A stretch of 64,000 nt of DNA from Chitinophagales bacterium (lineage in GTDB: Bacteria > Bacteroidota > Bacteroidia > Chitinophagales > UBA8649): positions 64,216-128,215 of the forward strand of contig JASJJC010000023.1 in the NCBI GenBank assembly GCA_037624485.1, in the 5' to 3' direction. Shown here piece after piece: positions 62,625 through 64,000 of this stretch. The notes under the pieces are model-generated. The model was not told the origin of the DNA. It did no database searches and saw only the letters and a list, made by a program, of their open reading frames with translations. Both the position numbers and the translations under genes were made by a program. Positions within the stretch are counted from its first letter, which is position 1; each line of letters begins with the position of its first letter.

Positions 62625-64000
62625 ATGACTGATAGGATTGAGTTTAAACTACTGAGAGAAGAATTAGATTACACCCAAGAGCAACTAGCTAGAATACTAG
62701 GAGTTTCGTTCTCTACAGTTAACAGATGGGAAAAAGGAAAATCATTCCCAAGAAAGGAAATGATTGAAAAACTGCAAGGACTTTCTTCTAAAAAGAATGT
62801 AAAATTAAATATAACTAAGAAACCTAAGGCTTATGCACTATTTGCTGGTGGTGGTGGATTTCACCTTGGGATGGAAAAGTATTTTGACGTGCTGGTTTCT
62901 AATGATATTGAACCAGAAGCAGAAAAGACTCATAAAAAAAATTGGCCTGAGATACCGTTTCTGTTGAATGACATAAGAATGGTGAAATCTGAGGATTTAC
63001 TAAAACTTGCCAAAGGTAAAAAGCCAGATGTAATATTTGGAGGACCACCTTGTCAAGGCTTCTCCACTTTAGGTGCAAAAATGTCTTCTGACCCAAGAAA
63101 TGTTTTATTCAGTCATTACGCAAGAATCGTTGCAGACCTAGAACCTAAGTGCTTTGTCTTTGAGAATGTCAAAGCATTCAAAACCATGTATGATGGTAAA
63201 TTCAGAGATGCAGTAATTGAAGAGTTTTCTGATTTAGGATATAGAGTGTATGAGAGAGTTATAAATACTGCACATTTTGGCGTACCACAATTAAGAGAAC
63301 GTGTATTTATTATTGGAACTAAACTCAAACATAACTTTTCATTTCCAAAACCAACCCATGGTCACTCTGACGATTTACTAGATTTTAATACCGTTGGTGA
63401 CGCAATCATGGATATAGTTGATGAAGACACTCTTTTTTGTGAGAACCATATCTCTTTAAATCATTCCGAAACAGTTACTGAGCGTTACAAGTTAATCCCA
63501 GAGGGTGGCAAACTGCCCCCACCAGAACAGCTTCCAGAAGCAATAAGGAGAAAGAATTTTGGGAATACATACAAAAGATTACATAGAAAAGAACCAGCAC
63601 TAACTATGGTTCCTGGAAATAATGCTTTCCCAATACATCCAGTCCTTAACAGAAGTTTAACTCCTAGGGAAGCTGCACGAATTCAAACCTTTCCAGATAG
63701 CCATAAATTTACTGGAGATAGAAGGAGACAATGCATATTAGTTGGGAATGCAGTACCTCCTTTAATGGCAGAAACATTAGCATCAAATGTTTATTTGCAT
63801 ATGAAAGGTAAACTTGAGGATCAAGACCCTCAAGTTTCTATTATTAAAAAATCTAAATCAGATAAAGCAAATAACATAATACCCTATAACAAACTTAAAA
63901 AGAAAACGACAAAAGAAGGATTTATTGATTTATTCTGTGGTGCTGGTGGGTTTACAATAGGTTTTGCTAATGCGGGTTGGAAACCTTTATTGGGTGCTGA
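62625..64000 (+). CDS. XRE-HTH fused to tandem DNA (cytosine-5) methyltransferase domains; 3' end outside window
   Basis: Hand translation from ATG 62625 gives 458 codons with no stop to the window edge, so the ORF is absent from the supplied track. The HTH is [18 protein letters not shown]. Domain 1 has motifs I [17 protein letters not shown] (Cys codon 63051-63053), VI [32 protein letters not shown] and X GNAVPP. A second motif I, [11 protein letters not shown], starts at 63921. Confidence 0.85.
   Translation, partial: [458 protein letters not shown]

Follow-up and report, generated by a model that had tools for sequence, protein, structure and literature searches.

The endonucleases of the PaqCI/BspMI/AarI family have a large cognate methylase, 'full-length M.BspMI' having protected against PaqCI, and BspMI, which is 39% identical to PaqCI, retains the ACCTGC core (PMC10201449). 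A literature search on the architecture of the BspMI and AarI methylases found nothing specific. Type IIS systems are known to join two methylases, one for each strand, in a single chain, as in M.FokI and M.AlwI, whose two domains each serve one strand of an asymmetric site (PMC4081073). HgaI/MhoVI-type systems, also Type IIS, use two C5 methylases, with the gene for an XRE-family helix-turn-helix (HTH) regulator immediately 5' of M1 (PMC12376442). Autorepression by an HTH-bearing methyltransferase (MTase) is a known mode of restriction-modification (R-M) control (PMC3874152, PMC2760811), and in SsoII, Ecl18kI, EcoRII and MspI an N-terminal HTH of ~65-70 residues is fused to a C5-MTase with a palindrome in its own promoter region (PMC3978073, PMC2760811, PMC3874152). 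Sedentary chromosomal integron arrays are reported to be enriched in small restriction systems of Types II and IV (bioRxiv 10.1101/2024.07.02.601686).

Here we analyse an open reading frame that runs off the right-hand edge of the window (the whole 64-kb stretch of DNA under study, from a marine Chitinophagales MAG). We are largely confident that it encodes the HTH-M1-M2 methylase of a PaqCI-family Type IIS R-M pair that would be autorepressed through the HTH and is carried as an integron-type cassette. Both methylase domains are C5-cytosine enzymes, whereas the FokI and AlwI methylases are adenine enzymes. The three functions that HgaI/MhoVI-type systems distribute over separate genes reside here in one polypeptide, and the nuclease is of another family. 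The HTH also sets the methylase apart from most of the PaqCI/BspMI/AarI family, in which it is absent from M in 86/118 loci and from the best database matches. Phage defence of this kind is well understood, but its packaging here is uncommon. New with respect to the initial annotation of this DNA are a 40-bp element upstream of the gene, the integron-type cassette, and the cassette's position behind a recombinase remnant together with its absence from relatives.

The methylase gene

A plus-strand frame open from ATG 62625 to the window edge, 458 codons in all, had been proposed to encode an HTH followed by two tandem C5-MTase domains. Translation confirms the frame, whose nearest upstream in-frame stop ends at 62576, and every motif coordinate given for it proved exact. 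In DNA of 37% G+C, a frame of this length with such profile matches is far beyond chance. The N-terminal HTH matches PF01381 (HTH_3, E 5e-12) and PF13560 (E 6e-8), its peptide spans 62649-62750, and small repressors and antitoxins of the XRE type are its closest relatives of solved structure. PF00145 matches in two stretches (E 2.9e-70, 237.7 bits against a cut-off of 22), and TIGR00675 (dcm) scores 211 bits against a cut-off of 100.65. Table 1 collects the features of the region.

Table 1. Sequence features at the right-hand end of the window
Feature	Position	Strand	Basis
Left junction, inserted DNA/core chromosome	62268..62269	.	comparison with relatives
Tyrosine recombinase/integrase gene, 3' remnant of ~54 codons (…IQVLLGHNSSKSTEIYTHV…SPL…)	62269..62431	+	PF00589, E 2e-5
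attI-like stretch with L'-like box TGATATAC (62502-09)	62432..62513	+	87% identical to L146:1-190
GTTGT core (R'-like), 5' boundary of the R-M gene cassette	62514..62518	+	homology break
Second palindrome AACGTAA-N5-TTACGTT, directly 5' of the candidate operator	62566..62584	.	sequence
Candidate operator, 40-bp symmetric element GTGTATT(62585-91)-N9-GCTATAGC(62601-08)-N9-AATACAC(62618-24)	62585..62624	.	conserved boxes
TACATTTG, match to Bacteroidota -7 box TAnnTTTG	62594..62601	+	read from sequence
hth-M1-M2 methyltransferase gene, 5' 1376 nt (458 codons)	62625..64000	+	translation, Pfam and NCBIfam matches, MEJ6695651.1
XRE-type helix-turn-helix domain, aa 8-50	62646..62774	+	PF01381, PF13560
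C5-cytosine methyltransferase domain 1, aa 71-388, motifs I-X	62835..63788	+	match to positions 5-321 of the 324 in PF00145
Lys-rich interdomain linker, aa 389-432	63789..63920	+	translation
Start of C5-methyltransferase domain 2 (motif I at 63921)	63921..64000	+	second PF00145 stretch

The motif order expected of a C5-MTase, namely I (FxGxG), IV (PCQ), VI (ENV), VIII, IX and X, is complete for domain 1 in the window. FAGGGGF (motif I) lies at 62841 and GGPPCQGFS at 63039-63065 with the catalytic Cys codon TGT at 63051-63053; these are followed by FENV at 63159, further motifs at 63288 and 63660, and GNAVPP at 63744. M.HaeIII and M.HhaI are relatives of this domain in the PDB. For domain 2, motif I is found in the window and motifs IV-X, including GNAFPP, in the MAG's own protein record and in the near-identical contigs L149 and L150. 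That record (MEJ6695651.1, here P0384) is the PGAP call of the same gene as an 822-aa protein from TTG 62583. It agrees with the window translation at every residue of aa 15-472 and goes on to the remaining motifs, which settles the completeness of the second domain. It also rules out a pseudogene in this MAG.

Counted from ATG 62625 the full gene has 808 codons and a predicted end at ~65051, beyond the window. The nucleotide sequence of domain 2 cross-matches that of domain 1 at ~71%, and the two domains look like a tandem duplication; the linker between them differs in length and sequence among homologues. The representative of the methylase's protein cluster, P0380, is 98% identical to it; a scan of GTDB species representatives, among which the source genome is absent, gave a best match of 68%. 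Judged by the profile and protein matches, the frame encodes the N-terminal part of a genuine methylase of 808 residues in which an HTH precedes two tandem C5-MTase domains, putatively catalytically complete.

A candidate operator at the start codon

The last base of the 40-bp symmetric element is position -1 relative to the ATG. The element occurs with no mismatch in the window and in L037, L001, L011, L040 and L058, and with 2-4 mismatches in L002, L026/L038, L003, L004 and L041-43, a set of carriers that crosses phyla (Flavobacteriaceae, Saprospiraceae, Colwellia and unbinned marine contigs). Its place is always directly 5' of an HTH-bearing M gene, with no second site elsewhere in those loci. 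The boxes are invariant or nearly so and the spacers vary freely: between cassettes that are 96% identical overall, the right-hand spacer differs at 4/9 bases and the boxes at none. We did not find the element in any non-HTH locus examined, nor upstream of the closest HTH-less homologue (L127, M 73% identical). Because it is found only upstream of HTH-bearing versions, it is likely to be an auto-operator for the methylase HTH, and the autoregulation that the initial annotation ascribed to the HTH gains plausibility from a conserved palindrome immediately next to the start codon. The HTH-less homologues have no evident separate C (controller) gene upstream; transposase or recombinase genes are found there instead.

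The sequence TAnnTTTG is the -7 consensus of Bacteroides promoters. Its match TACATTTG lies within the left spacer of the 40-bp element, abutting the central box, and an exact TAnnTTTG stands at the same place in L037, L011, L040 and L058 (1 mismatch in L001 and L026). A sigma-70 promoter scan of the region was uninformative, the host being a member of the Bacteroidota. The second palindrome is kept only in the near-identical cassettes (L037, L146, L149, L150) and not in distant homologues.

The HTH might instead serve in DNA tethering, in sensing or at another promoter, the 40-bp element being just promoter or untranslated sequence, a reading that we consider unlikely. In its favour, outer boxes ~33 bp apart around a central 8-bp palindrome form a tripartite element quite different from the compact 15-bp inverted repeat of the SsoII operator, and the nuclease gene (R) here is co-directional with M and downstream of it, whereas SsoII and Ecl18kI have a divergent R that shares the regulatory region (PMC2760811). 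The strict co-occurrence of element and HTH nevertheless argues against it, and a perfect dyad with conserved boxes and free spacers has the look of a site for a dimeric or multimeric HTH protein, not of a promoter alone. We retain the 40-bp element as a candidate auto-operator whose mode of action may be alike to that of SsoII and Ecl18kI, although the layout is not; the likeness to the SsoII type is drawn from architecture, and the HTH here is fused to two methylase domains.

Cassette boundaries and the insertion site

Homology to L037/L146 (96.2% identical) and to L149/L150 (99.93%, 1 mismatch in 1487 nt) begins exactly at GTTGT 62514, and the DNA upstream of it is unrelated among the window, L149/L150 and L037/L146, so that the unit stands in three different upstream contexts. 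In L037/L146 the GTTGT closes, on the 3' side, a site to which an attC covariance model gives 24.8 bits, and in L149/L150 it follows an attC-like sequence read by eye, with no attC-model score at E<=1. Directly after R lies an attC-like site (L149:4862-4929), to which the covariance model, made from 16 other sites, gives 33.0 bits (E 5.6e-6). This site, the cassette's own attC, begins TGGCTACAAC (R'' box), the complement of the cassette start GTTGTAGCCA. Promoter, M, R and the terminal attC-like hairpin together make up one cassette of ~4.1 kb.

The covariance model was built from 16 independent sites, trimmed and drawn from one population. Their consensus has the layout R''(..AAC)-L''…L'-R'(GTT..) with compensatory changes in the L boxes; 79% of cells are paired, against 22-40% in slid controls, and 0/500 shuffles reach the score. 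The sites each follow a gene in co-oriented arrays. A scanner that demanded perfect 7-mer pairing was discarded because its 9 matches were no better than shuffles (mean 12). Outside the Chitinophagales, a homologous R-M system in a Sulfurimonas MAG (L006) ends in the near-canonical site ACCTAAC…GTTATGT. Within the same marine Chitinophagales population the same R-M cassette takes different positions in integron-like arrays, and the neighbouring cassette in L146 encodes SLFN_AlbA_2 and GmrSD_N proteins. A HIT-family gene that adjoins the same breakpoint was tried as the cassette's nuclease and rejected as unrelated; its presence there pointed to cassette arrays.

In the window, the R-M unit is the first cassette behind a cut-down recombinase gene. 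The remnant is co-oriented with the cassette, has TIGR02249/XerC/XerD C-terminal matches and shares 43% identity with the C-terminal end of a 378-aa integrase associated with the array of L138. After the attI-like stretch, L146 carries a different cassette (a 199-aa gene) at the same point. Collinearity with the window up to the junction region is seen in seven contigs of 99.2-99.6% identity to it. L119, L120, L121 and L123 match to exactly 62268, where L121 itself ends, and L122 matches to 62186. L119, L120, L123, L124 and L125, with two records that lack DNA, continue into a 122-aa gene, a hydrolase and a peptidase M1. The insertion is thus absent from 99.3%-identical relatives, which preserve the empty site. 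No tRNA lies within 9 kb that would link the integration to such a gene. The stretch after lysS is not the decayed spacer that had been proposed: 61413-62268 belongs to the core DNA, is conserved in relatives at 99.3% identity, and contains a 73-aa gene and a SAM-I/IV riboswitch match on the minus strand. The relic is confined to 62269-62513, made of the recombinase 3' end and the attI-like stretch.

The unit could also be cargo of a tyrosine-recombinase island or a transposon remnant, with terminators for hairpins, and four observations would suit such an origin. A functional integron integrase (IntI) with its attI platform was sought at the window locus and just the 54-codon remnant was found; the one full-length array-associated integrase that we examined falls just below the NCBIfam integron-integrase cut-offs of NF040815 and TIGR02249 (216.3 vs 220 and 209 vs 265); the attC model does not recognise the window's pre-cassette stretch as a full attC; and that model comes from trimmed sites of a single population. 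Against this stand the R''-L''…L'-R' layout with its compensatory L-box changes, the placement of the sites after genes in co-oriented arrays, the exact complementarity of the cassette start and its own R'', the constant break at GTTGT behind three different neighbours, and the near-canonical end site in the Sulfurimonas MAG, and we regard an origin other than an integron as improbable. The M+R unit is best called, from these sequence comparisons, an integron-type cassette in a degenerate, integron-like array. It shares with the defence cassettes of sedentary chromosomal integrons a compact self-promoted system, attC-type flanks and a co-oriented array. It differs in that its host is a Bacteroidota (Chitinophagales) MAG and not Vibrio or Xanthomonas, and in that the integrase is a remnant; at ~4.1 kb and two genes it is large for an integron cassette.

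The partner nuclease and the proposed mode of action

Since the window ends within M, the sources for the nuclease, the 3' end of M and the attC are near-identical contigs and the deposited protein. In L149/L150 a co-directional gene for a 491-aa nuclease starts 4 nt after the M stop (3-nt spacer), and all four places where an identical M protein occurs have a 491-aa gene 4 nt downstream (DNA for two, L149 and L150). In this nuclease a PD-(D/E)xK domain at the N-terminus is followed by a recognition domain at the C-terminus. The nuclease shares with PaqCI/BspMI/AarI (PDB 8em1/8epx) the domain order, the E-x-K segment and an end-to-end alignment at E ~1e-94; the L146 allele matches PaqCI (PDB 8em1) over residues 3-490 with E 4.3e-94. 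Its ALEMKR segment aligns with ALEYKR of PaqCI, which contains the catalytic residues E73/K75 (PMC10201449). Among 96 related loci with enough sequence, M is paired with a PaqCI-like or N-terminal-domain-sharing nuclease in 89: a full-length PaqCI-like gene is adjacent in 73 (downstream in 68), and a nuclease that shares the N-terminal domain alone is present in a further 16.

Because a PaqCI homologue follows 4 nt after its stop, the frame is assigned by homology to the PaqCI/BspMI/AarI family of Type IIS R-M systems, as the M gene of one of its members. The effector that the initial annotation had expected past 64000 is thereby found, in contigs with the identical methylase, and its suggestion that two MTase domains serve an asymmetric site fits such a partner. 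Its proposal that the methylase opens an R-M or other defence island holds as far as the R-M system goes, but in place of a large island there is a single cassette in a degenerate array. PaqCI cuts at CACCTGC 4/8. The nuclease is only distantly related to it, at a level similar to the 39% identity of BspMI and PaqCI. Site specificity therefore cannot be taken from PaqCI, whose exact site and cut positions may not apply here.

There is only a slight chance that the system is orphaned or decaying, with a nuclease lost, cut down or mutated here and a solitary methylase of epigenetic or anti-restriction function: the nuclease, read from other contigs and with no protein from this MAG in its NCBI cluster listing, may for those reasons be damaged or missing in this genome, and ACCTGC/CACCTGC are not avoided in the 64-kb window (25 ACCTGC vs 18.6 expected; 10 CACCTGC), but an intact nuclease gene follows the identical M in all four places, at 99.93% DNA identity, the listing is incomplete (the L149 nuclease allele itself is missing from it), and the MAG encodes an intact, full-length methylase.

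In the model that we propose for the intact R-M pair, the recognition site would be asymmetric and probably related to (C)ACCTGC, with one methylase domain modifying each of its strands. Methylation would shield the host DNA, and the nuclease, as a tetramer, would cleave incoming DNA that lacks the methyl marks, a few bases to the side of the site. The HTH would bind GTGTATT-N9-GCTATAGC-N9-AATACAC, which overlaps the promoter and reaches up to the start codon, and the methylase would in this way repress its own operon, so that expression would be high upon entry into a naive cell and would then settle at a low steady state. We are evenly divided on a wider proposal, in which HTH-M1-M2 and the 40-bp tripartite palindrome would form an uncharacterised, self-contained control circuit, one polypeptide both modifying the two strands and repressing the operon, and would so enable the 4.1-kb unit to act as a plug-in cassette independent of an array promoter, in marine Bacteroidota arrays stocked with defence cassettes (R-M, GmrSD-like, Schlafen-like, PvuRts1I-like).

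The analysis identifies an unannotated frame and the DNA past the window edge, and it supplies a concrete candidate operator for a one-protein circuit that would modify both strands and repress itself. Marine Bacteroidota may hold new PaqCI/AarI-like enzymes, which are Golden Gate reagents, each with a single-gene protecting methylase. Integron-like defence arrays are little described in the Chitinophagales, and this locus documents a Type IIS R-M system that moves there as an integron-type cassette. With the site empty in some and occupied in others of a set of 99%-identical genomes, the locus offers a clean natural example of defence-gene turnover.

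The tandem methylase and its partner nuclease

The frame opening at ATG 62625 runs to base 64000 without a stop, 458 codons in translation, as the initial annotation had claimed, and every motif position given there is exact, among them 63051-63053 for the TGT codon of the catalytic Cys and 63921 for the second motif I. The frame matches PF00145 in two stretches (E 2.9e-70; complete domain at residues 71-388) and PF01381 (HTH_3; E 5e-12, residues 8-50) in Pfam, and TIGR00675 in NCBIfam (211 bits; cut-off 100.65), so that translation and both databases confirm a helix-turn-helix (HTH) joined to a C5-methyltransferase. 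The deposited product of this gene, hereafter M, is MEJ6695651.1 (822 aa), encoded on the same 130,953-bp contig of the marine Chitinophagales MAG from which the window comes; its accession follows directly on MEJ6695650.1, the 73-aa protein (locus tag QNK51_07480), and the window's ABC-F protein is MEJ6695648.1. Residues 15-472 of MEJ6695651.1 are identical to the window translation, and its second C5-methyltransferase domain is complete past the window edge, with motifs that include GNAFPP.

We found that an 808-aa form of the M protein is encoded identically at four places, with DNA for two of them, loci L149 and L150, which show 1 mismatch in 1487 nt against window 62514-64000. At all four a 491-aa gene, R, begins 4 nt after the M stop (…TAA CTT ATG…). 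Its allele in L146, a locus whose M is 98% identical to that of the window, matches PaqCI (PDB 8em1) over residues 3-490 (E 4.3e-94), and the stretch PDGRLS…ALEMKR lines up with the part of PaqCI in which the catalytic residues D54/E73/K75 lie. The tetrameric Type IIS enzyme PaqCI combines a nuclease domain at its N-terminus with a recognition domain at its C-terminus and cuts CACCTGC 4/8; BspMI is 39% identical to it, yet retains ACCTGC (PMC10201449). The effector expected past 64000 is thus a PaqCI-like gene directly after M in the near-identical L149/L150 DNA and, read from these contigs, would lie just past the window edge. The proposal that two fused methylase domains serve an asymmetric site also stands, given this Type IIS partner and the textbook solution for such sites, in which a single chain carries a separate methylase for each strand (PMC4081073). 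By homology, M is the predicted regulator-plus-double-methylase of a PaqCI/BspMI-family Type IIS restriction-modification (R-M) system, and the earlier interpretation was essentially right, with the nuclease family now named. Site avoidance in the 64-kb window gave no clue to the recognition site, as neither ACCTGC (25 copies against 18.6 expected) nor CACCTGC (10 copies) is depleted.

The tandem-Dcm architecture is common to thousands of proteins of 740-820 aa in a homology search. We collected 118 loci, 96 of them with a complete tandem gene and some flank. A full-length PaqCI-like gene lies immediately downstream of the tandem gene in 68 of the 96 and upstream in 5; another 16 have a nuclease with only the N-terminal domain in common, and beside 7 no nuclease was detected. 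These counts include L127, the closest HTH-less relative (M 73% identical). HTH-bearing members are a minority, 32 of 118 loci in a set biased towards them, and a precomputed HTH domain appears in one among the best 120 database matches. The word-seeded search gave a best identity of 69%, though the 98%-identical cluster representative P0380 and MEJ6695651.1 (P0384) are in the collection, and absence there is therefore not evidence of absence.

A candidate operator and the start of M

Directly 5' of the HTH-bearing M genes we found a symmetric 40-bp element, GTGTATT-N9-GCTATAGC-N9-AATACAC. It is matched perfectly in the window, L037, L001 (Pontimicrobium), L011 (Saprospiraceae), L040 and L058, and with 2-4 mismatches in L002, L026/L038, L003 (Colwellia), L004 and L041-43; it was not found elsewhere in those loci or 5' of HTH-less genes. 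In alignment the three boxes hardly vary, if at all, and the spacers are free: 96%-identical cassettes differ at 4 of 9 positions of the right spacer and at no box position. In Bacteroidota members the left spacer contains a match to the -7 promoter box TAnnTTTG, and the Clostridial HTH-bearing relatives retain a GCTATAGC/ATGCTATA core beside a TATAAT box.

We propose that the HTH of M would bind this element and repress the M-R operon. Autorepression by an HTH-methylase is known from enzymes of the SsoII/Ecl18kI type (PMC3874152, PMC2760811), but operator and gene layout differ, since R is co-directional with M here. The HgaI-like MhoVI has the same parts (XRE, M1, M2, R) but as separate genes (PMC12376442). 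Autoregulation had been suggested from the HTH, and a conserved palindrome restricted to HTH-bearing genes makes it plausible. Immediately 5' of the candidate operator is a second perfect 7-N5-7 palindrome, AACGTAA-ATAAA-TTACGTT (62566-62584), retained only in near-identical cassettes.

The frame of M is open upstream as far as 62577. PGAP places the start at TTG 62583 (822 aa), whereas callers on other assemblies choose ATG 62625 (808 aa, P0385), and homologues begin at the Met equivalent to the latter. We prefer ATG 62625 because the exact 808-aa product is called elsewhere and the 14 extra N-terminal codons would fall within the conserved palindrome.

Features of the insertion site, the regulatory region and the cassette
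Feature	Position	Strand	Remarks
73-aa gene	61593-61814	minus	MEJ6695650.1, 'hypothetical', no family match
SAM-I/IV riboswitch match	61870-61960	minus	43.5 bits, gathering score 41.1, E 9.5e-4
Tyrosine-recombinase gene, 3' remnant	62269-62431		last ~54 codons, …IQVLLGHNSSKSTEIYTHV…SPL…; starts the insertion
Candidate operator	62585-62624		40-bp symmetric element; ends at base -1 of ATG
-7 box match	62594-62601		TACATTTG; abuts central box of element
Cassette	62515 to ~66598		extrapolated to window coordinates
M	62625-65051		extrapolated
R	65055-66530		extrapolated
attC	66537-66604		extrapolated

An insertion carrying an integron-type cassette

The decayed spacer that had been postulated after lysS is rejected, as window 51593-62268 is ~99.3% identical to several metagenomic contigs. 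Collinearity ends at 62268/62269, where seven contexts (five contigs and two records without DNA) go on into a 122-aa gene, a hydrolase and a peptidase M1; one relative contig ends exactly at the break. Because collinear relatives continue into the 122-aa gene instead, the DNA from 62269 on is an insertion that close relatives lack. In the shared part, the riboswitch match lies 56 nt upstream of the 73-aa gene, the only candidate for its control, since lysS runs convergently on the opposite side; a riboswitch of the SAM class preceding a tiny protein without a family is unusual. In L122 (99.6% identical) ~250 nt of the lysS 3' part, window 60881-61130, are absent and a 100-nt unmatched stretch stands instead, shrinking the lysS call to 76 aa, which may reflect either a genuine deletion or an error of assembly.

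The recombinase remnant matches PF00589 (E 2e-5) and, with its C-terminal part, XerC/XerD and integron-integrase models; it is 43% identical to the array-associated integrase described below, and an attI-like stretch lies directly 3' of it. Homology of the window to other carriers of the R-M unit always starts at GTTGT (62514-62518), and the upstream contexts are unrelated: the remnant and attI-like stretch in the window; in L149/L150 an attC-like sequence, recognized by eye and without a model score at E<=1, that ends the cassette of a 439-aa gene; and in L037/L146/L147 the hairpin that belongs to a cassette for SLFN_AlbA_2 and GmrSD_N proteins. The window's attI-like stretch shares 87% identity with L146:1-190, after which another gene begins at the same point. 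Right after R, L149 and L150 have an attC-like site (33.0 and 32.1 bits, E 5.6e-6 and 9e-6) beginning TGGCTACAAC, which is exactly complementary to GTTGTAGCCA, the start of the cassette, as expected for an integron cassette. With a length of ~4084 nt, the M-R unit has the sequence organization of an integron-type cassette.

Cassette arrays and their attC-like sites

Searching from the 122-aa flank, we found in L130/L131, directly next to the same chromosomal breakpoint, a unit of two genes (one of 344 aa and one of the HIT family) that is present in 221 blocks of the collection, within gene arrays that are co-oriented, highly variable and often behind a 378-aa integrase. In this unit (L130:1076-1495, L132, L138-L145) the 344-aa gene, without a family (faint HNH match in one record), overlaps the 122-aa HIT-family gene; the 5' start is always GTTGTAGCACATATTACACC, the unit has its own attC-like site, and its neighbours vary greatly. 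In the window's MAG the unit and the 123-aa flank gene are neighbours on another contig, of 13.6 kb, and the unit therefore probably closes the same array as its last cassette.

Array genes or gene pairs are each followed by an imperfect palindrome, [..YNAAC]-[GTATA..]…[..TATAC]-AAACC-[GTT..]. Sixteen such sites align easily, with compensatory changes in the inner stem; pairing holds in 79% of cells in the given register versus 22-40% in slid registers, and their covariation was reached by none of 500 shuffles. A covariance model built from these 16 sites gave, over 1.24 Mb of R-M loci and the window, a single match at E<1, ending at the L037 cassette boundary; with filters off, a site was found just after the nuclease gene of the Sulfurimonas homologue (L006, 23.4 bits). 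L146 has sites at 875-927 (between its first two cassettes), 6057-6108 (just before the R-M unit) and 10120-10188 (after it). In the pre-cassette stretch of the window the model scored no attC, and the full-length array integrase is just under the NCBIfam cut-offs for XerA/integron integrase (216.3 vs 220); for these reasons the platform is termed a degenerate, integron-like array here.

The 378-aa recombinase (PF13495 and PF00589; L138:6042-7178, L142, L143), co-oriented with the cassettes, may represent a Bacteroidota integron-integrase lineage; 3' of it a conserved ~47-nt stretch ending ACACGTTGT precedes varying cargo. The cassette 5' of the R-M unit at L146:952-6057, also in L147, encodes a 1209-aa SLFN_AlbA_2 (Schlafen-like) and a 418-aa GmrSD_N (DUF262) protein and is likely a two-gene defence or Type IV restriction cassette, and an array of this kind in L144 includes a PvuRts1I-like/SRA gene.

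Chromosomal integrons are known to carry defence systems, small Type II restriction systems among them (bioRxiv 10.1101/2024.07.02.601686), and nothing found here is outside known kinds of systems. Beyond the initial annotation, the analysis names the family of the nuclease, finds a conserved candidate operator, and describes the unit as an integron-type cassette and its insertion as strain-specific. Modestly new are the HTH-M1-M2 fusion with its candidate operator and the Bacteroidota integron-like setting.
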